DNA of 11,928 nt, from the IMG/VR virus record IMGVR_UViG_3300027896_000028; one strand, written 5' to 3'. This document shows positions 1 through 11,368 of the stretch, in pieces; within the stretch, counting starts at the first letter, position 1; every line of letters begins with the position of its first letter. Position numbers and translations under genes: made by a program. Source of the stretch: a virus (Duplodnaviria > Heunggongvirae > Uroviricota > Caudoviricetes). The notes beneath the pieces are model-generated. The model was not told the DNA's origin. It did no database searches and saw only the letters and a program-made list of their open reading frames with translations.

Positions 1-243
1 AAGTTGCTAGTTAATACGGACGACTTATTTAGTCGAGACTTGAACGGTGTTTTCATCTATTAGATTCAACCGGTGCTATTAAAGTTGCTAGTTAATACGG
101 ACGACTTATTTAGTCAGGTAGTGAACGGTGTTTTCATCTATTAGATTCAACCGGTGCTATTAGGATCTATGAGTTAATACAGACGACTTATTTAGTCGAA
201 ACCTGAACGGTGTTTTGGTCTATTAGATTCAACTGGTTCTATC
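1..243. repeat. Tandem repeat, 3 copies of an ~81-bp unit (starts 1, 82, ~163); may continue left of the window
   Basis: GTTAATAC recurs at 10, 91, 173. Copies 1 and 2 are identical at 76/81 nt, with all 5 differences inside a 7-nt patch (35-41 GAGACTT vs 116-122 AGGTAGT). Copy 3 is the 3' end of CDS 192..515. Confidence 0.95.
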
Positions 244-515
244 GATCCTACGAGTGCTTCAGTTACACCCCTGATATCTCCCTTAGAGCGCTCTTCATAG
301 TCAGAATGGAACCTGTGTGACTGGATCCTTATAGACATTTGTACTTGATCTCTTAACCCTTCAATCGTACGCGTATCGATATCTATCTCACCCCATATCT
401 GTTTAAGAGTGACATTATCTATTTGACCAGCTAACTGATCCCACATCTTGTCAATCACATTGGAGTGTATCCTATCACATACCTCACTAACAACCTGTAT
501 ACCCATTGTTGTCAT
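192..515 (-). CDS. Tetrad-repeat (QVxx-like) family protein with extra C-terminal tail, 107 aa
   Basis: ORF track; ATGA overlap with 512..817; MWDQLAGQI / LRDQVQMSI motifs. Confidence 0.8.
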   Translation of the reverse strand: MTTMGIQVVSEVCDRIHSNVIDKMWDQLAGQIDNVTLKQIWGEIDIDTRTIEGLRDQVQMSIRIQSHRFHSDYEERSKGDIRGVTEALVGSIEPVESNRPKHRSGFD

Positions 516-817
516 ATCAGTGATCTCATTACTTGGTTACTGACTTGTATACGCACGCCGTTATCCACTTTGTCATATACTTGCTCCCATGTTTGGCTCC
601 ATACCAAGTCGCCTACTTGACTATTAGTCTGGTTAATCACTTGCTCACGTACTTGATCCCACATTAGATCCCAGACTTGAGCATACACTTGTTTATCTAC
701 CCGGGTACCCACTTGATCTCTCACTCGGCCATCCACTTGGTCATTCACCTGTCTCTCTACTTGGTGCCACACTTGGCTCAACTGGTTATCCTTATTCACT
801 TGTTCTTCAGTTGTCAT
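512..817 (-). CDS. Tetrad-repeat QVxx protein (archetype), 101 aa
   Basis: V at 18 of 21 every-fourth positions (residues 16-96), preceded by Q in 15; ATGA overlaps at both ends. Confidence 0.9.
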   Translation of the reverse strand: MTTEEQVNKDNQLSQVWHQVERQVNDQVDGRVRDQVGTRVDKQVYAQVWDLMWDQVREQVINQTNSQVGDLVWSQTWEQVYDKVDNGVRIQVSNQVMRSLI

Positions 818-1023
818 GATGTTAATGAGGTTCTTAGAAATATAAAAATTTGATCGCGAATCTGAGCCTGTACCTGCCCTCTAACCTGCATTATAACCTG
901 ATCCAGTATGTGGTGATCAACCTGAGCATAAACATCGGTAAATGAGCTATCCCATACTTGATCCCAGATACTGTGGTCAACATCCCTTCTAACTATACTA
1001 GCAATTTGTTCTTGTATTGTCAT
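814..1023 (-). CDS. Tetrad-repeat QVxx protein, 69 aa
   Basis: I/V/L at 16 of 17 positions 3,7,11...67; ATGA coupling. Confidence 0.9.
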   Translation of the reverse strand: MTIQEQIASIVRRDVDHSIWDQVWDSSFTDVYAQVDHHILDQVIMQVRGQVQAQIRDQIFIFLRTSLTS

Positions 1024-1226
1024 GTCAGTGATCTCTTTATTGGTACAGCTACTTGACGTTCAACTTGTACCCACACTCGGTTTTCTACGCTGTCACGTAT
1101 ATTAACCTGTGTTGCTCTATTCATTAAGTCATGTACATCAGAGCTTACTTGACCCCAGACTCTACCAATCACCTGGTGGTATACTCTGTTATGCACTTGA
1201 GTAAATATTTGTTCTCTAGTTATCAT
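1020..1226 (-). CDS. Tetrad-repeat QVxx protein, 68 aa
   Basis: I/V/L/M at 15 of 16 positions 7,11...67; ends KRSLT; ATGA coupling. Confidence 0.9.
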   Translation of the reverse strand: MITREQIFTQVHNRVYHQVIGRVWGQVSSDVHDLMNRATQVNIRDSVENRVWVQVERQVAVPIKRSLT

Positions 1227-1447
1227 TCTATTAAACCTCTTACATGGTTCCTAACTTGCCCCTCGGTCTGAAAGCGAACAGGTGACCATACTTCTTGATT
1301 GATCAACCCTCTGATCTCGTCACTTATCTGATTTCTGGTCTGCATAATCATCTTGAAGTTGATCTCGCTGAACACTTCACCTTCTACACGATCATAGATC
1401 TGAGAGCGAACTTCGTTATAGTCGTTATAGAGTGTGTGCGTCTTCAT
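1223..1447 (-). CDS. Tetrad-repeat family protein, 74 aa
   Basis: EVRSQIYDRV...QVRNHVRGLI 4-residue pattern; overlaps neighbours. Confidence 0.85.
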   Translation of the reverse strand: MKTHTLYNDYNEVRSQIYDRVEGEVFSEINFKMIMQTRNQISDEIRGLINQEVWSPVRFQTEGQVRNHVRGLIE

Positions 1448-1631
1448 GATTCCATTGTGATGCCATTATTAAATCGCTGACCTGAGTGTTGACTTGTTCA
1501 CTGATATGATTCTGCATAAGACCTTCAATCTCATGCCTGATATGGAAGTTCACATCTTTGCTAACCTGGTTCATCATTGGGTTGGTAACATTATGCCAGA
1601 TTGAATCGTGAACTCGTTGAGTGTTTATCAT
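1425..1631 (-). CDS. Tetrad-repeat family protein, 68 aa
   Basis: QVSKDV...HISEQVNTQVSDLI; AAGGAGG SD upstream; ATGA coupling. Confidence 0.85.
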   Translation of the reverse strand: MINTQRVHDSIWHNVTNPMMNQVSKDVNFHIRHEIEGLMQNHISEQVNTQVSDLIMASQWNHEDAHTL

Positions 1632-1858
1632 TTCAATACCCTCCTTACATTATTGCGCACAGGTTCTATCACAACAGTCATCGGCCAACGCAAACCGTCC
1701 CATATTAACAAGTCCACGCTAGGGTAGATACTGTCACCCAGATCTCCTTCTGTTGGATCGGTTACATACTGACTGATGCACGCATACACCTCAATCCCTA
1801 GCTGGTTACGCGCTTTATGGATAGCTAAAAACTGTTCGTATTTCTTGTTACGTTTCAT
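1628..1858 (-). CDS. Diverged tetrad-repeat family protein (start revised to MKRNKK, 76 aa)
   Basis: ATG at 1858 overlaps the TGA of 1855..2103 (ATGA); IWDGLRWP motif. Confidence 0.75.
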   Translation of the reverse strand: MKRNKKYEQFLAIHKARNQLGIEVYACISQYVTDPTEGDLGDSIYPSVDLLIWDGLRWPMTVVIEPVRNNVRRVLK

Positions 1859-2103
1859 ATTGGTCTGTGCCAATCACCAGCACCTTGACCCCATGCAGCT
1901 TCACTATCTAAGCTCATTATCAGCATCAGGTTTACCGGTCTTAAGTTGACAGCCGTAGGTGTGTATAGTTTACTGAATAGTGTAACCCCTTTGACTTCAG
2001 ATGTTGCATCTATGTCATTATAGCAGCTGAGCTCTATACGTAGGTACATAGCGCTGTTAACGGCATAACAAATTCTATCGTATATTTTATCTCGCTCTGT
2101 CAT
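1855..2103 (-). CDS. Hypothetical protein, probably a diverged tetrad-family member, 82 aa
   Basis: N-terminus MTERDKIYDRI resembles MTTQDKIADTI of the neighbour; coupled. Confidence 0.7.
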   Translation of the reverse strand: MTERDKIYDRICYAVNSAMYLRIELSCYNDIDATSEVKGVTLFSKLYTPTAVNLRPVNLMLIMSLDSEAAWGQGAGDWHRPI

Positions 2104-2299
2104 AAGCTGTTAGTACATCTGATACCTGAACACCTATCTGATTACCTACTGCATTGTATATGCAAATTTTTATCTGATCGCGTACATCAACGTATAAATT
2201 GGCTTCTATGTCGTCCCATAGTGTCTCACGTATGCTTCGATCGAAGCGTTGACACACGCGAAGTCTTATGGTATCTGCTATTTTATCTTGCGTTGTCAT
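2087..2299 (-). CDS. Tetrad-repeat family protein, 70 aa
   Basis: DVRDQIKICIYNAVGNQIGVQVSDVL pattern; TAATATG junction. Confidence 0.85.
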   Translation of the reverse strand: MTTQDKIADTIRLRVCQRFDRSIRETLWDDIEANLYVDVRDQIKICIYNAVGNQIGVQVSDVLTAYDRAR

Positions 2300-2300
2300 A

Positions 2301-2552
2301 TTACGTAACCCGTAAAGAAACCTCTACATTGTTGCCCACTTGATCACGGACTGCAATGCGAATCGTTCTAGCTAATTCATCTGATATGACATCAACAGCT
2401 TCCACACTGACTGCTTTCTGTACCTCACACCACGCTGGATTGCGTATATAATCCATGAACCTGTTATACGTTATAGTACGTATCTGCTCATCAGCTGAAT
2501 GCTGCATCGGAGGTACGTTGTAACCTGGTATGTATGAACCTGTTAATATCAT
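2301..2552 (-). CDS. Tetrad-repeat family protein, 83 aa
   Basis: IRIAVRDQVGNNVEVSL C-terminal pattern; ATGA coupling. Confidence 0.8.
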   Translation of the reverse strand: MILTGSYIPGYNVPPMQHSADEQIRTITYNRFMDYIRNPAWCEVQKAVSVEAVDVISDELARTIRIAVRDQVGNNVEVSLRVT

Positions 2553-2785
2553 AAATATCTCAGCGATCTAACTACAGGACCGCGAACTTCAATACTGACC
2601 TCATTACGCACTGGTGAGCGTAACCCATGCCACACTATAGGGTCTATCCCGTTTTGTATCAAGAATTCTAGTTGATCTACCTCACGAGTACCCAGTATGT
2701 CAGTCAAGCGCCTGTGCACTTGAATGTATACGTCATTTTCGTCTAAAGAGATGACTTGTTCTGCTTCTGTTTCTTCTTCTGTCAT
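2549..2785 (-). CDS. Tetrad-repeat family protein, 78 aa
   Basis: VWHGLRSPVRNEVSIEVRGPVVRSL; TAATATG junction. Confidence 0.8.
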   Translation of the reverse strand: MTEEETEAEQVISLDENDVYIQVHRRLTDILGTREVDQLEFLIQNGIDPIVWHGLRSPVRNEVSIEVRGPVVRSLRYL

Positions 2786-2786
2786 A

Positions 2787-2981
2787 TTAAAATGCGCGCA
2801 ACAAGGTTACTAAAGGGCTGTGAACCGGTGCTATCTGAGCGTCAATTGGGAACCAGAGGTGAAGATCAATCTGAGCATCGACGTGTGTAGATATCGTAGC
2901 TTGAACATCACGCCAATGTGATATGATCATATCATGTAAAGCCCCACTAGCTTGACCGATTACTTGTTCTTCAACGTTCAT
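2787..2981 (-). CDS. Tetrad-repeat family protein, 64 aa
   Basis: Starts MNVEEQV like MTTEEQV; periodic V/I; 11-nt overlap. Confidence 0.8.
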   Translation of the reverse strand: MNVEEQVIGQASGALHDMIISHWRDVQATISTHVDAQIDLHLWFPIDAQIAPVHSPLVTLLRAF

Positions 2982-3177
2982 TGTTCAAAGAGTGCATAAC
3001 ATTGAGACTAACGTCTCTGACTTGTCGGTATACCAACCATTGTAAACCATCATAGATTATACTTCTATCTACGAGTCTTACATGATATTCTAGATCACGA
3101 CTAATAGTCGACATAGTACCTTGAATAGCAATACACGTCTCTTTACCGTTGTAAGAGCTTTCAATACTGGATTTCAT
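2971..3177 (-). CDS. Diverged tetrad-repeat family protein (start revised to MKSSIE, 68 aa)
   Basis: IYDGLQWLVYRQVRDVSL; the longer ORF-track start would overlap 3161..3520 by ~100 nt. Confidence 0.65.
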   Translation of the reverse strand: MKSSIESSYNGKETCIAIQGTMSTISRDLEYHVRLVDRSIIYDGLQWLVYRQVRDVSLNVMHSLNNER

Positions 3178-3520
3178 CGTAGATGACGACGAGGAGGAGT
3201 TTGTTTTCTTCGCCAACTTTGTGATAGACTCGAATCTCGTACTCTTCGAATCCATCAACCGGGTTAGCGATGTTATCGCACTTCTCTAGAAGTTGTATAT
3301 CATCGTTACTGAGTAAACGCATTGTGTTTCCATTAACAAACATCTGACGGATCTCTCCTTTATCTCGGCGAGCGAGAGTGAGAAGGATACCAGTAGCATC
3401 CTCCATCGTAGCCTGAACATCTAATGGTGTGCGGTCTTCGACGGCATCCATCAGCATATCGCTCATATGAGCGATAACGAGTTTAGCCATGTCTTCAATT
3501 TGAACTTTGATTGTAATCAT
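3161..3520 (-). CDS. Hypothetical protein, 119 aa (start revised to MITIKV)
   Basis: ATG at 3520 forms an ATGA overlap with 3517..3882. Confidence 0.75.
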   Translation of the reverse strand: MITIKVQIEDMAKLVIAHMSDMLMDAVEDRTPLDVQATMEDATGILLTLARRDKGEIRQMFVNGNTMRLLSNDDIQLLEKCDNIANPVDGFEEYEIRVYHKVGEENKLLLVVIYDEIQY

Positions 3521-3882
3521 GATTTTGTTTTGTTGAGGTAGTGTGAATGAAGTCCGACGACTTTGCAATGAGAATTGGATATAAAGATTTTATCGAACGC
3601 GACAAAATAGCGCGTATACATACGACCAGGTACGTATCCAAAACCTTTGTATTGCATAGACGAGCGAATCGTCTTACCATTCGGAGTGGAAACAGCGATT
3701 ACAACTCCCTCTTCACCGATGTACTTGTCATAACGACCATCTTCACATCCTTCGGTTTGTTTACCGACGCGAACAACATCCCCTTGCTGAAACTTACAGC
3801 GAGGATTGTTCCAATCAGTCAACACCTTCGCTTTGATGTTGTTGCTTTTGAGTACCGCTTTAACTATATGATTTACTTTCAT
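3517..3882 (-). CDS. Hypothetical protein with SH3/KOW-like beta-barrel signature, 121 aa
   Basis: KFQQGDVVRV...GEEGVVIAV...YFVAF is a typical small-barrel pattern; first gene after the promoter. Confidence 0.65.
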   Translation of the reverse strand: MKVNHIVKAVLKSNNIKAKVLTDWNNPRCKFQQGDVVRVGKQTEGCEDGRYDKYIGEEGVVIAVSTPNGKTIRSSMQYKGFGYVPGRMYTRYFVAFDKIFISNSHCKVVGLHSHYLNKTKS

Positions 3883-3888
3883 AAAGAG

Positions 3889-3917
3889 ATTGTACTTGCT
3901 CCTCGTTAGAAGAGCAA
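3889..3917 (-). promoter_or_regulatory. Sigma70-type promoter, leaderless
   Basis: TTGCTC (3917-3912), 17 nt, TACAAT (3894-3889), 6 nt, ATG (3882). Confidence 0.7.
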
Positions 3918-3927
3918 GTACTTTTTT
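3892..3927 (+). terminator. 10-bp perfect inverted repeat plus T6 (intrinsic-terminator-like on + strand, or operator)
   Basis: GTACTTGCTC (3892-3901), 10-nt loop, GAGCAAGTAC (3912-3921), TTTTTT. Confidence 0.5.
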
Positions 3928-3930
3928 GGT

Positions 3931-4131
3931 TTACTCCAGTTTCCAGCCGCCCTTAACAGGCTGCCGATTCGCTTTGATGAGTTCGTAGACGGTGTAATCA
4001 CCATCGTCACCATGGTCGTCGAGCTCTCTCTGTACGATATCTTCAATCTCGCTCATCGTAGCGCAGACGTCGCCGACCAATTCGCCATTACACTCATCCA
4101 TCAAGATGAATTGTTTTTCGTTTCTGGCCAT
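3931..4131 (-). CDS. Hypothetical acidic protein, 66 aa, paralog of 4162..4377
   Basis: AGGAG SD 5 nt upstream; FILMDE...YTVYELI matches YAILIDE...LTVCKLV. Confidence 0.8.
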   Translation of the reverse strand: MARNEKQFILMDECNGELVGDVCATMSEIEDIVQRELDDHGDDGDYTVYELIKANRQPVKGGWKLE

Positions 4132-4161
4132 ATTAACTCCTGGTTAGTTGTTGTGGTTGGT

Positions 4162-4377
4162 TTAATTCTTGAGCATCGTAACGATAGGCTCATCAGGCAG
4201 CATAATCGTTGCGACCGGCACCAGCTTGCAAACGGTGAGGATAGCACCCTCATCGATATTGCCTTTGCATTCTCTAACAGCCGCTTCGATGCTGTCGTAC
4301 ATACAACCACTCCACACGCAATCACCATCCTCATCGATGAGGATTGCATATTTCGTTTTGTCTTTCTTCTGATACAT
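4162..4377 (-). CDS. Hypothetical protein, 71 aa (start revised to MYQKK)
   Basis: GAAAGG SD-like sequence and a promoter upstream; similar to 3931..4131. Confidence 0.75.
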   Translation of the reverse strand: MYQKKDKTKYAILIDEDGDCVWSGCMYDSIEAAVRECKGNIDEGAILTVCKLVPVATIMLPDEPIVTMLKN

Positions 4378-4417
4378 ATTTTGCCTTTCGGTTAATGGTT
4401 TCTCTAACAACAAATAC

Positions 4418-4446
4418 AGTATACAGGTTCCTGGATCGAAGTGCAA
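4418..4446 (-). promoter_or_regulatory. Sigma70-type promoter (leadered)
   Basis: TTGCAC (4446-4441), 17 nt, TATACT (4423-4418). Confidence 0.7.
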
Positions 4447-4447
4447 C

Positions 4448-4834
4448 TTAATTATTACGAACAGCTGCAGCTTCTTTATCCATGCGAGTGACCTTCTGTT
4501 TCTGTCGACCAATCAGAAGACCAGCTGCAGTAGGGTAATACCCATCCGCCGTCTTTGTCGCGAGTTTGTCCTCATTGACAAGCTCATCGATAAACAGAGC
4601 AACACCCTCTTTGATCTCATCGAGGTCGAGCATCTTGTTGAACTTGTTAAAGATCGATTTATTGATCGTGTCGACCGTCATCCGGCCATGACCAGCATAA
4701 ACCAGATCAGCCATCGCTTCGAGGACAGAGCTTTTAACGACCAAGCCCCGGAGCTGAGCAGGTGTGATATTGAGGTTGGAGCAGAGATCGACAACGACCT
4801 CAGCAGTTGATTTGTCAATTGATTTCGGATTCAT
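4448..4834 (-). CDS. Probable winged-helix DNA-binding protein, 128 aa
   Basis: Helical region ending LVNEDKL followed by GYYPTAAG, resembling the YxLTxxG wing motif; by eye only. Confidence 0.55.
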   Translation of the reverse strand: MNPKSIDKSTAEVVVDLCSNLNITPAQLRGLVVKSSVLEAMADLVYAGHGRMTVDTINKSIFNKFNKMLDLDEIKEGVALFIDELVNEDKLATKTADGYYPTAAGLLIGRQKQKVTRMDKEAAAVRNN

Positions 4835-4867
4835 ATTTGGTTAAGTGTTAATGTTAACGACCAAATA

Positions 4868-4896
4868 AGTATACCAGCTCAGCGGCAGAACTGCAA
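4868..4896 (-). promoter_or_regulatory. Sigma70-type promoter (leadered)
   Basis: TTGCAG (4896-4891), 17 nt, TATACT (4873-4868). Confidence 0.7.
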
Positions 4897-4899
4897 GAG

Positions 4900-5163
4900 C
4901 TAATTCGAACTATTTTGTCGATCGAATTCCTCAGCCTCATGTAATGCAGCTTCTGATCCTGGCTTAGCCTTCAAGCAAAAAGATAAACCAAGTTTACCGA
5001 GCGGGATTGGGTTGCGTTGCTTGTACGATTTGCTTCCGGGTTTAGGAGCGTAAGGACCTTCCTGCCAAATACTATTGAGTAAGTCGAGATGCTCTTCGGC
5101 AGTCTTATCGATTGCCTTATAACGTGTTGACCAGTCGCTCTTTTTGTATTCTTCCATTGTCAT
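4900..5163 (-). CDS. Hypothetical protein, 87 aa
   Basis: ORF track; ATG 3 nt after the upstream stop. Confidence 0.75.
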   Translation of the reverse strand: MTMEEYKKSDWSTRYKAIDKTAEEHLDLLNSIWQEGPYAPKPGSKSYKQRNPIPLGKLGLSFCLKAKPGSEAALHEAEEFDRQNSSN

Positions 5164-5166
5164 AAA

Positions 5167-5364
5167 TTATTCAGTAGGTGGTTTCAATTCAACTCTCCGG
5201 TTCCAAGCTAACGGATTTAACCTATTCGTATAGACATCGTTTGATTCGAGTCTACAGCCACAATCTTCACAAGCTACAATCATCGACTGGCGACTAGTAC
5301 CAAGGCGCTCTATTACTGGAGTACCTCCACAAAACGGACATGGTAGCAAATGTTTCATGGTCAC
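5167..5364 (-). CDS. Lar family (restriction alleviation-like) Zn-finger protein, 65 aa
   Basis: LLPCPFCGG...CEDCG...AWNRR is the characteristic Lar-family signature. Confidence 0.8.
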   Translation of the reverse strand: MTMKHLLPCPFCGGTPVIERLGTSRQSMIVACEDCGCRLESNDVYTNRLNPLAWNRRVELKPPTE

Positions 5365-5582
5365 TCTGAGTCTGAATCGATTACCGGTAACATGCTCTCT
5401 TCAATAGCACCCTCTTTACCAACATGACGGTTGGCAGTTCTGCAAATGACTGCAGCTTCGTCCAGACTATAGCGTCCAGCTTCAGCTCTGTTAGGAGTAT
5501 ACCCCATACCATCTTGCCTCCAGTATTGGTTACGCTCGTGACTCCACACGATCCAAAGAGTGTTGTCAGTTTTGTGCTTCAT
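5361..5582 (-). CDS. Conserved phage hypothetical protein (W...GYT...AGRY...EA motif), 73 aa
   Basis: YWRQDGMGYT...EAGRYSLDEAAVIC motif; ATGA coupling to the Lar-like gene. Confidence 0.75.
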   Translation of the reverse strand: MKHKTDNTLWIVWSHERNQYWRQDGMGYTPNRAEAGRYSLDEAAVICRTANRHVGKEGAIEESMLPVIDSDSE

Positions 5583-5588
5583 GTAGTT

Positions 5589-5616
5589 ATATTACAGGTT
5601 TTTTATTTTTTGTCAA
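5589..5616 (-). promoter_or_regulatory. Sigma70-type promoter, leaderless
   Basis: TTGACA (5616-5611), 16-nt A-rich spacer, TAATAT (5594-5589), 6 nt, ATG (5582). Confidence 0.7.
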
Positions 5617-5624
5617 GAAGATTG

Positions 5625-5903
5625 TTAAGAATACTGTAGATTAATCTCAGCTATAATGTCATCTATAATGTCATCTATAATTGCATCCTGTATTAAAGCT
5701 CTCACTACACTAGCAATCGGTGAGATGTTATCATCAACAGGCCCTTTAACACAATAAATAACAGAATGGTTTACATCGAAGCTAATACCATTACGCTCGT
5801 CTACAAAATCGTGGAGTGGTGAACTCCACAGTACCCTATCACGCACCTTTCGTACCAACCTATCAGTAAGATACTCGTTGAATGTATGTTTTTTAGTTCT
5901 CAT
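5625..5903 (-). CDS. Diverged tetrad-repeat family protein, 92 aa
   Basis: LVRKVRDRVLW...IIDDIIDDII periodic pattern; 11-nt overlap. Confidence 0.7.
   Translation of the reverse strand: MRTKKHTFNEYLTDRLVRKVRDRVLWSSPLHDFVDERNGISFDVNHSVIYCVKGPVDDNISPIASVVRALIQDAIIDDIIDDIIAEINLQYS
5651..5681. repeat. 12-bp tandem duplication (CTATAATGTCAT x2.6) inside CDS
   Basis: Exact copies at 5651-5662 and 5663-5674, partial at 5675-5681; encodes IIDD IIDD II. Confidence 0.9.
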
Positions 5904-6084
5904 TTAATAAAGACAACTCTGTCATTCGTCTAACGTGAGTTACTATATCTGAATACACAAATATTTGTATATCGCTAACAACAGTAGCATTAGCCATTTT
6001 GTTAATCTCATGCTGAGCACCAGCGAGTACGCTATCAACGCAGAGCACTAAATCGAGCAACGTATTATGTTCATTACGCTTCAT
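5893..6084 (-). CDS. Hypothetical protein, possible diverged tetrad-family member, 63 aa
   Basis: Size, periodic aliphatics (VVSDIQIFVYSDIVTHV), 11-nt overlaps. Confidence 0.65.
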   Translation of the reverse strand: MKRNEHNTLLDLVLCVDSVLAGAQHEINKMANATVVSDIQIFVYSDIVTHVRRMTELSLLNEN

Positions 6085-6271
6085 ATAATTGTGTACTAGC
6101 GTTTACTAAATTTCTTACCCTGAGAACGTTAAGGTCTATATCAATTGTTAGCGTAGACCAGACAACACTCCAGTCATACGTGTCTAACTGGTTTGCAGTA
6201 TCCTCGCTATTGGATACTAAAACAATACTGCACCGTCTTGCAACATCTCCACGATTTCCAAAATCATTCAT
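6074..6271 (-). CDS. Hypothetical protein, possible diverged tetrad-family member, 65 aa
   Basis: VVWSTLTIDIDLNVLRVRNLV pattern; coupled. Confidence 0.65.
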   Translation of the reverse strand: MNDFGNRGDVARRCSIVLVSNSEDTANQLDTYDWSVVWSTLTIDIDLNVLRVRNLVNASTQLYEA

Positions 6272-6277
6272 AATTCG

Positions 6278-6652
6278 TTAAGAAGGTTTCCTAACTCTTG
6301 GCTTTTTAAACCTAGAGAGAGCTATGCTCAACGGATCTTGACAATAACCAGCTGGTCGAGGACCTATACCTTTAATGCAGTCTATTCGACCTGAGCAAGC
6401 TCTTCCTTGCTTTGCCCATTTATTATAGTAATCAACATCAAACGGTGTATCTATTATTATACCGTTCCAATGTCCATCCACTTTTGAACCACCGCTAGGG
6501 AACTCCATAAGTTGAACAGTAGCAACATTATCTCTACAACCTGTTGGGGCTTCACCACCATTAGGATGTATTTCGGTGTATATAATGTCACCAGGTTTAA
6601 GTCTATTAACCTGCTCTGGTGTAAGTGTACTATGATCTGTTAGATTACTCAT
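6278..6652 (-). CDS. Hypothetical protein, possible SH3-like N-terminal barrel, 124 aa
   Basis: LKPGDIIY motif; basic C-terminus. Confidence 0.65.
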   Translation of the reverse strand: MSNLTDHSTLTPEQVNRLKPGDIIYTEIHPNGGEAPTGCRDNVATVQLMEFPSGGSKVDGHWNGIIIDTPFDVDYYNKWAKQGRACSGRIDCIKGIGPRPAGYCQDPLSIALSRFKKPRVRKPS

Positions 6653-6660
6653 AAGATTAT

Positions 6661-6864
6661 TTAAGATCGCAGAAGGAATACTAGATTGCGTTTAATGTCA
6701 GCGAGCAATCTGTTATTTGTCTCTCTAGTAATCCCAATATACAATACATCTGACAGCTCAGGGCTTATCACGCTGTGTACAGCATCGTAAACAGGTCGTG
6801 TCACTTTCTCTTTAATCAGAATGCATGGCGCTACATCTATCATATTGCAAGGATTATTCATCAC
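6661..6864 (-). CDS. Diverged tetrad-repeat family protein, 66-67 aa (GTG 6864 or ATG 6861)
   Basis: KVTRPVYDAVHSVI...LADIKRNL periodicity; overlap with upstream stop. Confidence 0.7.
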   Translation of the reverse strand: MMNNPCNMIDVAPCILIKEKVTRPVYDAVHSVISPELSDVLYIGITRETNNRLLADIKRNLVFLLRS

Positions 6865-7060
6865 GCAGAGTTCTACAGAGAGGTACCTGTACTTGCAATC
6901 TGATAGACTCTATTATAGGGTTCCTAACCCCTCTCCAGATATCTACTTCAACAAATGATGATACCTCCTCGAACCGGTTCATTAGATGAATACTAAGCGC
7001 TTCCTTCACGTTGTATATTATAGCAATATTAACACCAGATTTGATATCAGCATCAGTCAT
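6854..7060 (-). CDS. Tetrad-repeat family protein, 68 aa
   Basis: Hydrophobic residues at 6,10...30 and 33,37...65; IWRGVRNP; ends RTL. Confidence 0.8.
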   Translation of the reverse strand: MTDADIKSGVNIAIIYNVKEALSIHLMNRFEEVSSFVEVDIWRGVRNPIIESIRLQVQVPLCRTLRDE

Positions 7061-7302
7061 ATCGGAGGTAGTTTAACCATCGATTGATCAGTATCATCAG
7101 CTGACGCTGCTTCACTAAAGTTGTCACAGAATATGCTAGCTAACCGCACTGTACACTCAGCCAGCTTCTGCATGTTGTGGTTAGTATTCTCGAGGTTCCT
7201 TACGGTCAGTTCGAGGTTGGTGTTCTCTCTACCTAACCGATTGTTTTCTAATGCGAGATAGGTAATAGTAGCCGTTAAGAGGATCGTCATTAAAATTTTC
7301 AT
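7057..7302 (-). CDS. Membrane-anchored coiled-coil protein, 81 aa
   Basis: Hydrophobic N-terminus ILMTILLTATITYLAL followed by heptad-like ENTNLE...NLENTN. Confidence 0.7.
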   Translation of the reverse strand: MKILMTILLTATITYLALENNRLGRENTNLELTVRNLENTNHNMQKLAECTVRLASIFCDNFSEAASADDTDQSMVKLPPI

Positions 7303-7308
7303 TTACGT

Positions 7309-7337
7309 ATTATAGAATATTTCAATGAAAATAACAA
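7309..7337 (-). promoter_or_regulatory. Sigma70-type promoter, leaderless
   Basis: TTGTTA (7337-7332), 17 nt, TATAAT (7314-7309), 6 nt, ATG (7302). Confidence 0.75.
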
Positions 7338-7344
7338 GTTTTAT

Positions 7345-7758
7345 TTAGAGTTTACCATCACCATAATGCCGATGATTACGCTTGAAGCATTCGATCAGAG
7401 AGATGATATTAGTCTTGCCAATAGGGTTCATCGTGTGGACGTAATACTCTGGAAATGGTTGGTTGTGTTTAATACAGTACTCTACTAGCCACATAGCGCA
7501 ATCATATCCAGTCTTCTCTGTATACGAACCATAGGGAATAGTATTGGGGTTAGATATTCCTCCTTTGGGTTCCATAAACGGGTAGTGTTCAATGGATAAA
7601 TCATGATCGAACGTTACGCGTGCAGGCATCCCGTGTGTTGCAATCACGTGTACAAATTCTTTATAATTGCGTACAATAGTCCAGTGCACAGGTGGCAGCT
7701 GTACCCATGATACCTGCTTCGGAGAGCGTTCGTCGTCTAGAAAAAGTGAGTATGTCAT
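7345..7758 (-). CDS. Cyclic-phosphate-processing receiver-domain (cREC-like) protein, 137 aa
   Basis: LFLDDERSP...WTIVRNY.EF...FDHDL...TGYDCAMWL...VHTMNPIG motifs match this family. Confidence 0.8.
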   Translation of the reverse strand: MTYSLFLDDERSPKQVSWVQLPPVHWTIVRNYKEFVHVIATHGMPARVTFDHDLSIEHYPFMEPKGGISNPNTIPYGSYTEKTGYDCAMWLVEYCIKHNQPFPEYYVHTMNPIGKTNIISLIECFKRNHRHYGDGKL

Positions 7759-7964
7759 AATTGTTTCTCTTTACTTACATCGATGTCGCCCGGTTTCAAG
7801 GTTAACCATAACTGTTGCGCTACCTGTCTACATACTTGTATATACACCTTAGTACCAATACCCTCCTTAACACCGATATGATCAGTAAAGCTCAATGCGC
7901 ATTGAACCTCTTGACATACATCTTCTATGAAGTTGCTTACTTTCTTTTCGTTCTTACTTATCAC
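7755..7964 (-). CDS. Tetrad-repeat family protein, 69 aa
   Basis: KVYIQVCRQVAQQL; ATGA coupling to the cREC gene. Confidence 0.75.
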   Translation of the reverse strand: MISKNEKKVSNFIEDVCQEVQCALSFTDHIGVKEGIGTKVYIQVCRQVAQQLWLTLKPGDIDVSKEKQL

Positions 7965-8172
7965 TTGGTACCTCCACGTCTGATAGCAAGGTGTCTCTAC
8001 TAATATGACGTATCATCCACAACTGTCTATCAACTTCAGTTTTGATACCATGCCACACAGTCATATCGGTTTGGAGCCCAGCTTGTTGATTGCAGTCTTT
8101 ATTGTTCTCACAAATCACAAAGCTTATGAGCTCGTGATGTCTAGTAGATAATCTGGGATCAGTAGTCCTCAT
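7954..8172 (-). CDS. Diverged tetrad-repeat family protein, 72 aa
   Basis: VWHGIKTEVDRQLW; TAATG junction. Confidence 0.7.
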   Translation of the reverse strand: MRTTDPRLSTRHHELISFVICENNKDCNQQAGLQTDMTVWHGIKTEVDRQLWMIRHISRDTLLSDVEVPSDK

Positions 8173-8375
8173 TATAAGGTTCGGTGTAAAGTATTTGAAA
8201 CAAAGTCAACTTGTCTTGCAATTGGACCGAGGCTGCCATATATCATACCTCTAACATTCTCGCTGATACTATCAAATACAGCAGCATCAATACCGTCCCT
8301 AACAGAGTCCTTAAACATCTTGTAGGGCATAAAGCGTACAAGCTTTGTAACCTCTTCAAGTGCTGTTAGTTTCAT
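8172..8375 (-). CDS. Tetrad-repeat family protein, 67 aa
   Basis: V/I/L/F at 21,25,29...49; ends HRTL; first gene after the promoter. Confidence 0.8.
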   Translation of the reverse strand: MKLTALEEVTKLVRFMPYKMFKDSVRDGIDAAVFDSISENVRGMIYGSLGPIARQVDFVSNTLHRTL

Positions 8376-8383
8376 TCTCGTTA

Positions 8384-8412
8384 ATTGTAGCGTATATCTA
8401 CGAGAATGTCAA
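8384..8412 (-). promoter_or_regulatory. Sigma70-type promoter, near-leaderless
   Basis: TTGACA (8412-8407), 17 nt, TACAAT (8389-8384), 8 nt, ATG (8375). Confidence 0.8.
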
Positions 8413-8433
8413 GAAGTTATTTGTGGATTCGTA

Positions 8434-8616
8434 TCAACCTACCTTGTCGAGAGCTGCTTTGACTATCGTAATCAGCTTCGGATGACCTACATCAGTTGGT
8501 TCAGAGGTAAGATGCTTGTATACATCCTTCAATGCAGTAAGAGCTACCTTCAGCTTCGCGTCAGAGTTATGTTTCTCATCGAGCGCTTCGTACATCAAAC
8601 GGTTATCTTTATTCAT
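8434..8616 (-). CDS. Hypothetical helical protein, 60 aa
   Basis: ORF track; 8-nt overlap with upstream gene. Confidence 0.7.
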   Translation of the reverse strand: MNKDNRLMYEALDEKHNSDAKLKVALTALKDVYKHLTSEPTDVGHPKLITIVKAALDKVG

Positions 8617-8815
8617 ATTGATTATTTATCTGATCTGTCAACGCTACTTTAAGAATACTGCTAACCTGCCGTTGTATGATATTGCCGAGTGGTACCCTAA
8701 GGAAGACGTATATATCATCTCTAATAAAGCCGGAAGTAATCTCAGTATCGTAAACATCCCAGAAAGGATGTACTACGAGCTTCGTTATTTTTAGCCTTAC
8801 TTCATCATTATTCAT
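8609..8815 (-). CDS. Tetrad-repeat family protein, 68 aa
   Basis: Hydrophobic residues at 6,10...26 and 31,35...63; IQRQVSSIL. Confidence 0.75.
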   Translation of the reverse strand: MNNDEVRLKITKLVVHPFWDVYDTEITSGFIRDDIYVFLRVPLGNIIQRQVSSILKVALTDQINNQYE

Positions 8816-8860
8816 ATAAACAAATCGTTTAAATCAAAGGCTAGAGGGTTTAAACCATGT

Positions 8861-9079
8861 TTAATACCCACGAAAAGATGCATGTACAGCTTCTCCAATT
8901 TGCCAGTAGACTACATGAGAGATAGGATCAAAGTTACTTCTGAGAGCTTCTATATTAATTTTCTTCTGTTTGATCTGATCCATGAATGAATCACTAAGCT
9001 CTCTGATACGATCATCAACCTGCCAGGTAATAGCATTGTTGAGTAAGAAGTAATTCTCAGTTGTGTTCAGCTTGCTCAC
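8861..9079 (-). CDS. Possible diverged tetrad-family protein, 72 aa
   Basis: WQVDDRI...VVYWQIGEAV; ATGA coupling. Confidence 0.65.
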   Translation of the reverse strand: MSKLNTTENYFLLNNAITWQVDDRIRELSDSFMDQIKQKKINIEALRSNFDPISHVVYWQIGEAVHASFRGY

Positions 9080-10071: not shown

Positions 10072-10170
10072 TTAACCAGCCTGCAACAGTAATACAATCT
10101 CCGCGCACAGTTTCATGGCGGCGATGGCGGCGTTGTTGGCAATGTCTTCAATGTCCTGCGCGTCCACCAT
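10072..10170 (-). CDS. Possible unlisted 32-aa ORF (MVDAQDIEDIANNAAIAAMKLCAEIVLLLQAG)
   Basis: Hand translation; overlaps the end of 10148..10357 and fills the gap; could instead be a frameshifted tail of that gene. Confidence 0.35.
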   Translation of the reverse strand: MVDAQDIEDIANNAAIAAMKLCAEIVLLLQAG

Positions 10171-10357
10171 TGCTGTAGTAGTTGACCTGCGCGTTGCAGT
10201 TTTTCAACATTCTGATTTCAATATCAGCGTCGGATAATTCGTTTTCGAGTTGGCGGGCGAAGTCACCCCATTCAGAGCAACTTCTTCCGACTGGCGCGAT
10301 TCCTTTCGCTTTCCAATAAAACTCATCCGTTCTCGGTGTTTTTGATTGTTCACTCAT
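10148..10357 (-). CDS. TPRTD...FARQLE phage family protein, 69 aa
   Basis: MSEQSKTPRTD...FARQLENEL; AGGAG SD. Confidence 0.75.
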   Translation of the reverse strand: MSEQSKTPRTDEFYWKAKGIAPVGRSCSEWGDFARQLENELSDADIEIRMLKNCNAQVNYYSNGGRAGH

Positions 10358-10829
10358 AGTTATTTCTCCTTCCCCATTGCTGCGTCGATGGCTTGGCGGA
10401 TATGCCTATCTACAAAGTGTGTATTTTTGTCAGTATCAAGGCAGACTACTTCGCCTAGCTCGTCCTCACTTGTCCACATGTTGAAACTATCTTCCTCCAA
10501 CCAATCCAATCTTTTGCTGTCCTTCTTCGCCTCGTCGTTCTGTTGCTTGAGGCTGTCGCGTTCGGATTTAATTGCTATGATTTGCCCAGCATCGGCAGCC
10601 GTATAAACTGATTTTGATTTGGCTTTTTCTTCGACACGGAACTGAATTTCTTTCCTCAACCCCTCGCAAGTGGCTTTGAGTTCGGTGAGTTCTGTTTCGA
10701 GTTGGCGGGCGAATGCTGAATTTACCCACTGTTCGCCATTTCTGTCTTTGCCACAAGCTTGGCTGTCGGTTCTTGGTGTGTTTGATTGTTCACTCATAAT
10801 TATTTCTCCTTGTTCATTGCTGCGTTGAT
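10326..10829. repeat. 64-bp direct repeat (10326-10389 and 10766-10829), plus 19-bp identical block (10243-10261 / 10695-10713)
   Basis: 56/64 identical; spans upstream gene tail, stop, SD and the first 11 codons. Confidence 0.85.
10360..10797 (-). CDS. TPRTD...FARQLE coiled-coil phage protein with RLDWL...AIDAAM C-terminal module, 145 aa
   Basis: Motifs seen in translation; AGGAG SD. Confidence 0.8.
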   Translation of the reverse strand: MSEQSNTPRTDSQACGKDRNGEQWVNSAFARQLETELTELKATCEGLRKEIQFRVEEKAKSKSVYTAADAGQIIAIKSERDSLKQQNDEAKKDSKRLDWLEEDSFNMWTSEDELGEVVCLDTDKNTHFVDRHIRQAIDAAMGKEK

Positions 10830-10888
10830 TTGCAGCCGGTCAGCAAAATCAGCGACGAGAGCATGAGGATTGTGAGGAGTGAGTTCAT
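10814..10888 (-). CDS. Unlisted 24-aa lipobox micro-ORF (MNSLLTILMLSSLILLTGCKSTQQ)
   Basis: ATG 10888 overlaps the TGA of the upstream gene (ATGA); hydrophobic core plus LTGC lipobox; no basic n-region. Confidence 0.45.
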   Translation of the reverse strand: MNSLLTILMLSSLILLTGCKSTQQ

Positions 10889-11154
10889 ACAAGTCCTTTC
10901 ACTTTTGCTAACGCTTGAACACGCTGTTGCCAAGTGGCGTGATATGTTAAACGCTTAATACAATCAGCGTCCATTTCATCTTCGGTTAGTCCTTCCTCCA
11001 CCAACCAACATAGGTGCAGTAGTTCGGTGTCGAGGACTGGGCGAGTATAACCTTTATCTTCGTCAAAACAAGTAAGCACTCGTCCATAAGTTAACTTCTC
11101 CGGCAGCATCTTCGCCAGCAGTTGTTTCAGTTTTAGTTCGGTGTCAGTTTTCAT
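10885..11154 (-). CDS. Conserved-looking phage hypothetical protein, 89 aa (start revised to MKTDTE)
   Basis: VLDTELLHLCW...HATWQQR; 11-nt overlap with the upstream gene. Confidence 0.75.
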   Translation of the reverse strand: MKTDTELKLKQLLAKMLPEKLTYGRVLTCFDEDKGYTRPVLDTELLHLCWLVEEGLTEDEMDADCIKRLTYHATWQQRVQALAKVKGLV

Positions 11155-11368
11155 AGTTCTCTTTGTAAGTCTTGTTCCAGTCTTCGGCAGCCTTGACCCA
11201 TGCTTCACCATTAATCATCGTATGCTTCATCGCTTCGATCAGCTCCCCTTTCCTCTCAGCGCACTGCTTAGCATAGCGACCGATTGCTTCCATCAGGAAC
11301 AGCTGGTTGACTGCTGAACCATCCATGTAGTCTTTTACGACCTGAGTGTTAGTTTTAGGTTGTTTCAT
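11144..11368 (-). CDS. Hypothetical protein, 74 aa (start revised to ATG 11368)
   Basis: ATG lies 6 nt after the -10 box. Confidence 0.8.
   Translation of the reverse strand: MKQPKTNTQVVKDYMDGSAVNQLFLMEAIGRYAKQCAERKGELIEAMKHTMINGEAWVKAAEDWNKTYKENYEN

Follow-up and report, generated by a model that had tools for sequence, protein, structure and literature searches.

An 11,928 nt stretch of DNA from a Caudoviricetes virus (IMG/VR record IMGVR_UViG_3300027896_000028), which at its full length we refer to as the window, carries a lineage-specific expansion of 17 supported paralogues, and up to 21, spread between positions 192 and 8815 and encoding small proteins of 63–107 amino acids (aa). Nearly the whole length of each protein is filled by a degenerate four-residue unit (tetrad), consisting of a variable residue, a variable or acidic residue, often Q, and then V, I or L. 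Our leading explanation, to which we would give a probability of roughly 45%, is that the family is a co-expressed panel of helical binders, sharing a conserved hydrophobic ridge but each presenting an individual surface, which act on host or phage protein complexes. The genes probably represent a diverged, unusually large and free-standing variant of a tetrapeptide-repeat module which is widespread in phages.

To test the periodicity, Kyte-Doolittle hydrophobicity was Fourier-transformed and its power at period 4.0 compared with that of 500 shuffles per gene. A first-pass annotation, made by a model from the sequence and its open reading frames (ORFs), had predicted a peak at this period and was correct, with z-scores of at least 4.7 in 11 genes (maximum 15.4, at 512–817) and of ~2.6–4.2 in seven more; the power peaked at 3.9–4.05 or at the harmonic of 2.0, and core members showed no signal at 3.6. 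Normalised period-4 power exceeded 6 in 10 of the 43 window genes compared with 0.5% of 1,123 ORFs from unrelated phage loci, where the top-scoring controls were proline-valine low-complexity frames, and none of 37 flanking small genes of the same phage (21 downstream on contig L031, 16 upstream on contig L153) exceeded 3. The tetrad register is unbroken across whole proteins, for example in 16 of the 17 tetrads encoded at 814–1023, and both halves of the protein share the same register in 13 of 17 members versus 9 of 26 non-members. V, I or L occupies the fixed position in 66% of tetrads (V 32%, I 22%, L 12%), the preceding residue is Q in 19%, and the fixed position is followed by R, S, D, W or Y and then by D, N or E. 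Conservation is limited to the hydrophobic register and the Q before it, the other two positions being nearly free, which fits the earlier description of a fixed scaffold with variable surfaces; the closer paralogues of related arrays show the same kept and free positions in a crude per-register count, which is indicative only. Another period-4 pattern was seen in control loci encoding cREC relatives, where ORFs of ~70 aa consist of (P-P-V-x) repeats (L017, 3176–3385; L009 and L010, 4066–4290), possibly as reverse-strand frames of a repeat gene.

As BLASTP connected just the first six genes together with those at 2549–2785 and 6854–7060, membership was assessed by leave-one-out (LOO) scoring with a hidden Markov model (HMM), each candidate being scored against a profile built without it and compared with 100 decoys (200 in a further test) shuffled so as to preserve the register class of every residue. 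Ten genes beat all of their decoys, and seven more were equalled or beaten by just 1–5 of 100 (Table 1). Two elements supply the signal specific to the family beyond periodicity, namely the N-terminal motif MT.xEQ[V/I] and a proline-containing C-terminal module of approximately [W/Y]-x-[G/S]-[V/L]-R-x-P-[V/I/M], which is followed by 4–5 tetrads leading to R-[S/T]-L. Judged by these profiles the genes form one real family, in which 17 of the 23 named genes are supported and one more is probable, leaving three possible members and two unsupported genes, with paralogues sharing 13–41% identity with the protein at 512–817 in the family alignment. Membership, like the structure prediction given below, is reasonably supported. 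The first-pass annotation had proposed an expansion of about 23 genes, a count which proved too high, since the genes at 5893–6084 and 6074–6271 found no support; its grouping of the distal genes with the main array extends beyond shared composition for six of them, two further ones (7954–8172 and 8861–9079) being possible members. The common starts (MT.xEQ[VI]) and ends (R[ST]L) it described are real but occur in only about half of the members, and in place of the gene start it set at 3177 we take the ORF to be 2971–3258 (95 aa).

All of the ~43 small genes in the window form a single run on the minus strand, with many junctions overlapping by 4 nt (ATGA), and these start/stop overlaps suggest translational coupling. 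The region 192–3258 is a tightly packed, largely translationally coupled operon of 11 supported members and two doubtful ones, in which six of 12 junctions are 4-nt overlaps and the rest span a 23-nt overlap to a 1-nt gap, and the other six supported members are scattered upstream of it on the same strand. Shadow ORFs are also present on the plus strand. At the nucleotide level, identity at lag 12 was 0.34, 0.38 and 0.31 at codon positions 1, 2 and 3, respectively (~0.23–0.30 at other in-frame lags), and the periodic signal was undiminished at lags 24 and 36. Tandem Repeats Finder detected few, weak 12-bp arrays of 2–3 units each, the Q codons CAA and CAG were used as in non-family genes, and V codons were mixed. 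A recent slippage array would be expected to carry the signal at codon position 3 too, and to lose it with distance; the concentration of the signal at positions 1 and 2 and the absence of decay therefore indicate that the pattern is kept at the protein level and is not a recent 12-bp repeat. The four-residue periodicity is thus an old pattern maintained in the amino-acid sequence.

Each family protein is predicted to form a single continuous long helix, or a helix with one break. With the 17 paralogues as the alignment, AlphaFold2 modelled the protein at 512–817 as one helix spanning residues 4–100 (predicted local distance difference test, pLDDT, 93.5; predicted template modelling score, pTM, 0.43) and that at 2549–2785 as helices over residues 3–31 and 33–77 (pLDDT 87), from a shallow alignment and with long single helices being an easy default for such predictors. 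Sequence searches of the PDB and a Foldseek search with the 2549–2785 model returned no match, Atlas look-alikes were limited to unnamed viral clusters for 512–817 and none was usable for 2549–2785, and complex prediction with three copies of the protein at 814–1023 scored 0.00, the partner fold being uncertain, which weighs neither for nor against an assembly. On a helix of 3.6 residues per turn, a period of 4.0 shifts the hydrophobic residue by ~40 degrees per tetrad (by helix geometry alone), so that the ridge would spiral round the helix once per nine tetrads and occupy no single face. A lone helix of this length with an exposed hydrophobic ridge is, on the models, unlikely to be stable as a monomer. 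The proteins were also considered as DNA mimics, which was rejected on their net charges of only −7 to +3.

A tblastn match led to gp38 of Mycobacterium phage prophiGD102-1, in which a long [W/R/G][G/D]QL array is followed by the Pfam domain DUF6745. Searching the family profile against 1.84 billion cluster representatives (E ≤ 0.001) recovered 1,071 of them, with DUF6745 arrays found at E-values down to 3e-40. The top matches are proteins of 350–600 aa with an N-domain, a long near-perfect [W/R/G][D/A/N]QV array and a C-terminal DUF6745 domain, PF20530 being present in 40 of the 57 top matches examined. The window unit matches the tetrapeptide module which, in phage DUF6745 proteins, separates the two conserved domains; the family has the xxQ[V/L] array of these proteins, with much of the score owing to periodic composition. 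No window protein matches PF20530 itself, scans of the members against Pfam, PHROG and NCBIfam gave nothing significant, and Megablast of the window against GenBank phages found no match. An HMM of 16 DUF6745 domains found nothing in the six frames of the window, L031 and L029, nor in the upstream called genes of L153 (best E = 0.14), and matched 18 control loci at E ≤ 5.5e-31; similarly, an HMM built from 86 N-domains of DUF6745 proteins reached at best E = 0.069 in the window, L031 and L029, and matched 17 control loci. Word-based homologue searches with the 512–817 protein and with the family alignment returned the window's own proteins and only two others, a 116-aa metagenomic tetrad ORF and a truncated DUF6745-type protein. 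The 2549–2785 protein alone found no relative when used as query for related loci, and none of 27 loci encoding cREC relatives contained a family member.

Free-standing arrays of similar small genes (mini-genes) occur in other uncultivated phages. A degenerate pattern matching DNA that could encode five Q-V tetrads in phase, scanned over IMG/VR, identified at least 120 loci, and small stand-alone period-4 ORFs were present in at least 23 IMG/VR loci; these and the following observations on arrays are among the matches listed. Several such loci have tandem genes, overlapping junctions and array-specific caps. For example, L038 has four mini-genes with the caps MTSQNKV ... QNDLTK and a DUF6745 gene abutting the array, L109 has 12–14 with the caps MIxMN ... 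DDYHE and a DUF6745 gene inside the array, and L035, L147, L047, L080 and L110 have 2–4 each, whilst in G004 the mini-genes likewise lie beside or around a DUF6745 gene. The placement of the DUF6745 gene is within the array in L109 (7013–7903 and 5702–11097) and directly before it in L038 (3905–5821). The most profile matches in one record numbered 19 (G001, a 32-kb fragment), to which the 17 supported copies in the window come close. DUF6745 was found in six of nine records with mini-genes, namely in all five array-bearing records searched whole and in one of four further records, the three records without it being fragments of 7–20 kb, and it was found in none of three large control records; in the complete genomes G003 and G005, eight profile matches lie 0–26 kb from the DUF6745 gene. 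A tblastn search of phages with a regular mini-protein gave no match, probably owing to the low-complexity filter. The 116-aa metagenomic ORF (P0156) resembles two fused mini-genes, its start MINV.NKV occurring twice. The window shares with these free-standing arrays the small tetrad proteins (~55–110 aa) and the tandem copies, and does not share their 12-bp DNA repeat of strain-variable copy number. The family had been put forward as undescribed, which stands insofar as we found no paper on it, but its repeat is a module of Pfam DUF6745 proteins and free-standing arrays exist in other phages.

In the explanation we favour, the mini-proteins would be accessory products expressed jointly, the V/I/L ridge, being conserved, would serve as a structural or contact element, and the two free positions per tetrad would give each paralogue a surface of its own, so that the set could act as a panel of protein-binding helices. 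Such a panel may disrupt or adjust complexes formed by host or phage proteins, with defence and counter-defence the likeliest setting, and may have as its partner a DUF6745 protein from another part of the genome. The nearest studied analogue is gp54 of mycobacteriophage Tweety, which has 40–48 tetrapeptide repeats between its N- and C-regions. Alone among tetrapeptide-repeat phage proteins it has a role that has been demonstrated, in that mutants evading the Phrann gp29/gp30 defence carry a changed number of gp54 repeats (PMC9262239, PMC2884959). Its translation contains AA[GWQ][SY] repeats with flanks of ~135 and ~40 aa. Our search of the literature on tetrapeptide repeats in phages found only the work on Tweety, and no paper on the mini-protein class. 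Should the analogy hold, such panels would be anti-defence or regulatory proteins of a new class. The family profile reaches over 1,000 protein clusters and numerous phage arrays, which makes the xxQV tetrad widespread, and the unbroken register in copies which are roughly 15–40% identical and have lost the DNA repeat points to the periodic structure itself being under selection, beyond what replication slippage would generate. The 17 supported members in the window also offer structural and binding work a natural series of variants on one scaffold, and a defined mode of assembly of the period-4 helix, if there is one, would amount to a new helical packing motif. A bolder proposal, which we consider improbable though worth stating, is that the xxQV tetrad is an uncharacterised helical building block, a long helix around which the hydrophobic ridge winds at a period of exactly 4, and that phages deploy it, here in 17–21 copies, as a combinatorial set which docks onto or co-assembles with a DUF6745-type tetrad stalk or host sensors, as a new and tunable mode of recognition in phage-host conflict.

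Several points count against a panel of binders. Atlas models were less confident than those of AlphaFold2 (pLDDT 0.77 for 512–817 and 0.46 for 2549–2785), and a period of exactly 4.0 lies outside known coiled-coil packing. The profile match to the DUF6745 module is largely one of periodic composition, so homology to that module is inseparable from convergence, and neither the N- nor the C-domain of DUF6745 proteins was found in the 26 kb examined of the 75.9-kb contig (the window, 7.4 kb downstream and 6.8 kb upstream). The family genes are identical in all strain contigs and so provide no substitutions from which selection might be read. Literature searches returned no functional datum for any xxQV protein or for DUF6745, a tblastn search with the DUF6745 domain failed to find Tweety gp54, and the likeness to gp54 would be one of architecture only, not shown homology.

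The strongest competitor, unlikely in our estimation but to be taken seriously, is that the mini-proteins are subunits of one assembly, packing together or onto a DUF6745 tetrapeptide stalk through the V/I/L ridge, and forming a hetero-oligomeric helical structure or setting the length and geometry of the DUF6745 protein, instead of each binding a target of its own. Translational coupling would yield similar amounts of each product, a lone helix with an exposed ridge would probably be unstable as a monomer, and in L038, L109 and G004 the DUF6745 gene is bordered or surrounded by mini-genes, with co-occurrence in six of nine records. A single defined structure would however not usually be built from subunits of 63–107 aa with nearly free surfaces, the 26 kb examined contains no DUF6745 gene, and by established coiled-coil geometry a period of 4.0 is not sustainable in a long parallel bundle with normal helix geometry.

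We give little credence to the array being an evolutionary relic, in which once-regular, slippage-prone xxQV mini-genes ceased to turn over and are now drifting with little or no present function. The 12-bp repeat has indeed gone from the DNA, periodicity or part of the pattern has been lost at 1855–2103, 2787–2981 and 2971–3258, and relatives of the degenerate members were not found elsewhere. Yet all ORFs are intact with their tight junctions and overlaps kept, the register is unbroken over whole proteins despite 13–41% identity to 512–817, the periodic signal is concentrated at codon positions 1 and 2, and family-specific motifs outscore register-preserving shuffles, all of which drift would erase. 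It seems similarly doubtful that the resemblance to the DUF6745 module is convergent, with an unrelated small helical protein having adopted an i/i+4 hydrophobic pattern. Register-preserving shuffles reproduce most of the profile score of the most regular members, the motifs MT.xEQ[VI] and W-x-G-L-R-x-P ... R-[ST]-L are the family's own and were not seen in regular arrays, and a DUF6745 gene was not found nearby; against this, the family also shares with the DUF6745 module the Q before the fixed position, the preference for R/W/Y after it and D/N/E next, and it has the size, tandem layout and overlapping junctions common to regular mini-gene arrays. We very much doubt that the feature works at the DNA level, in the manner of iterons or of an array of binding sites, or that it arises from composition alone, the ORFs being incidental, for although a 12-nt periodicity is detectable and plus-strand shadow ORFs exist, the lag-12 signal is weakest at codon position 3, Q and V codon choice is mixed, 12-bp arrays are weak and short, minus-strand ORFs tile the region with start/stop overlaps, and 37 flanking small genes of similar composition lack the signal.

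The family genes belong to a one-directional accessory block together with Lar-like, cREC and NAD+-rebuilding genes. The Lar-like and cREC-like genes which the first-pass annotation had placed among the family were confirmed by domain searches (Table 1), and an island of NAD+-rebuilding genes (NAMPT, Prs-like, NADAR and HIT), read from a strain contig, lies directly upstream, past the end of the window. The Lar-like gene is uncalled on strain contigs L153 (13362–13566) and L154 (9204–9408) despite identical DNA, which is a difference in gene calling and not a gene loss. Promoter- and terminator-like sites showed no enrichment over shuffles. The strongest terminator-like or palindromic site in the window is a hairpin with a 13-bp stem at 3892–3921, in the 48-nt gap between the genes at 3517–3882 and 3931–4131, and it has no T-run on the minus strand. 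An 81-bp tandem repeat (three copies, 86% matches) occupies 1–242, directly after and overlapping the 3′ end of the gene at 192–515, and a small hairpin is found at 184–198. The adjacent genes at 10148–10357 and 10360–10797 have similar first 40–45 residues (49% identity, E = 1e-5) and also share a 64-nt DNA repeat (10326–10389 and 10766–10829, 87.5%). The motif ELKQLLAKMLP occurs in both a 108-aa protein (10885–11211) and a 41-aa ORF ~18 kb apart in the same phage (L031, 6827–6952), and its recurrence hints at a second small paralogous family.

Contigs from two other samples carry the family genes at 100% identity, and the strains differ only in a mosaic patch within 3161–3882 and in short patches of the 81-bp repeat. 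In the gene at 3161–3568, 53 of 193 nt are mismatched over 3254–3446 (L029 and L030) in strains which are otherwise identical, and in the gene at 3517–3882 there are ~30 mismatches, many of them synonymous, and small indels over 3630–3855 (L153). These patches, just upstream of the array, look like recombination with a diverged relative. In the 81-bp repeat, differences from L029 cluster in two 6-nt patches (35–40 and 116–121), which occupy the same place in copies 1 and 2, with one further difference at 94. Strain contig L154 carries a 28-nt insertion at 10353/10354.

Table 1 Candidate family members and context genes in the window. Scores are LOO HMM scores in bits unless stated; decoys are register-preserving shuffles.
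Position	Strand	Length (aa)	Assignment	Score	Decoy scores	Decoys reaching score	Period-4 z	Remarks
192–515	−	107	Supported	32.7	6.1 ± 3.9	0/100	3.3	Last gene of array; C-terminal third non-periodic
512–817	−	101	Supported	48.0	33.3 ± 4.3	0/100	15.4	Most regular member; V/M/L closes 21/25 tetrads, mostly xxQV
814–1023	−	69	Supported	32.9	26.0 ± 3.6	5/100	8.7	
1020–1226	−	68	Supported	30.5	23.5 ± 3.0	2/100	7.4	
1223–1447	−	74	Supported	33.8	26.2 ± 3.5	3/100	5.5	
1425–1631	−	68	Supported	26.2	18.0 ± 3.4	1/100	6.5	
1628–1873	−	81 (inner ATG: 76)	Supported	16.4	1.7 ± 2.0	0/100	2.6	C-terminal W-x-G-L-R-x-P module
1855–2103	−	82	Probable, degenerate	7.7 (17-member HMM)	−1.7 ± 2.7	0/200	0.2	Family likeness limited to N-terminal 33 residues; 36% identity to N-terminus of 2087–2299 (pairwise E = 0.001)
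2087–2299	−	70	Supported	31.3	17.7 ± 3.6	1/100	4.7	
2301–2552	−	83	Supported	24.7	9.6 ± 3.0	0/100	5.3	
2549–2785	−	78	Supported	27.9	10.7 ± 3.8	0/100	6.3	Complete C-terminal module W-H-G-L-R-S-P-V ... R-S-L
2787–2981	−	64	Supported	10.2	1.1 ± 1.6	0/100	−0.4	Weak periodicity; support from profile only
2971–3258	−	95	Possible			19/200	5.5	Module likeness limited to C-terminal 25 residues; 36% identity to C-terminus of 1628–1873 (pairwise E = 0.008)
5167–5364	−		Lar-like restriction-alleviation protein, non-member					PF14354 E = 1.6e-9; phrog_599 E = 1.5e-9
5625–5903	−	92	Supported, distal	14.7	1.9 ± 1.7	0/100	3.1	
5893–6084	−		Unsupported					HMM compared with register-preserving decoys
6074–6271	−		Unsupported					HMM compared with register-preserving decoys
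6661–6864	−	67 (inner ATG: 60)	Supported, distal	10.9	6.0 ± 2.8	5/100	5.4	
6854–7060	−	68	Supported, distal	18.2	3.6 ± 2.5	0/100		BLASTP to 2549–2785 E = 3e-5; C-terminal modules of the two close
7345–7758	−		cREC_REC domain protein, non-member					PF20274 E = 2e-21
7755–7964	−	69	Supported, distal, weaker support	12.0	4.0 ± 2.7	1/100	1.6	
7954–8172	−	72	Possible, distal, marginal	6.6–6.7		3/100 and 6/200		No period-4 signal
8172–8375	−	67	Supported, distal	9.8	1.9 ± 2.1	0/100	3.5	Ends H-R-T-L
8609–8815	−	68	Supported, distal	15.2	3.0 ± 1.9	0/100	4.2	
8861–9079	−	72	Possible (periodic only)			16/100 and 21/200	5.8	Period-4 protein

Amongst known systems, DUF6745 proteins (PF20530; phrog_31813) resemble the window family in their tetrads, where V or L is preceded by Q and followed by W/R/G and then D/N/A/G. 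They differ in that their repeats are near-perfect and flanked by an N-domain (~90 aa) and a C-domain (~200 aa), whereas the window proteins are free-standing and degenerate, with terminal motifs of their own and neither domain. The xxQV mini-gene arrays (L038, L109, L035, L147 and L080) are similar to the window in encoding proteins of 55–90 aa made up of nearly all tetrads, in tandem, with overlapping junctions, 2 to ~19 copies and array-specific N- and C-caps; they are however regular at the DNA level and usually 0–26 kb from a DUF6745 gene, whereas in the window Q is found in ~19% of tetrads, there is no 12-bp DNA repeat, strains do not differ in these genes and the 26 kb examined contains no DUF6745 gene. 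Tweety gp54 (also Che8 gp57 and PMC gp51) is, like the window family, a phage accessory protein with a long four-residue repeat of two fixed and two variable positions, W and G being among the variable residues, but its repeat is AA[GWQ][SY] rather than xxQV and it has flanking domains, which the window proteins are without. Finally, coiled coils, including the right-handed hendecad and pentadecad forms, share with the family their long predicted helices and a regularly spaced hydrophobic position, yet have periods of ~3.5–3.75 and two core positions per repeat, in contrast to the period of 4.0 and the one core position per repeat of the window family.

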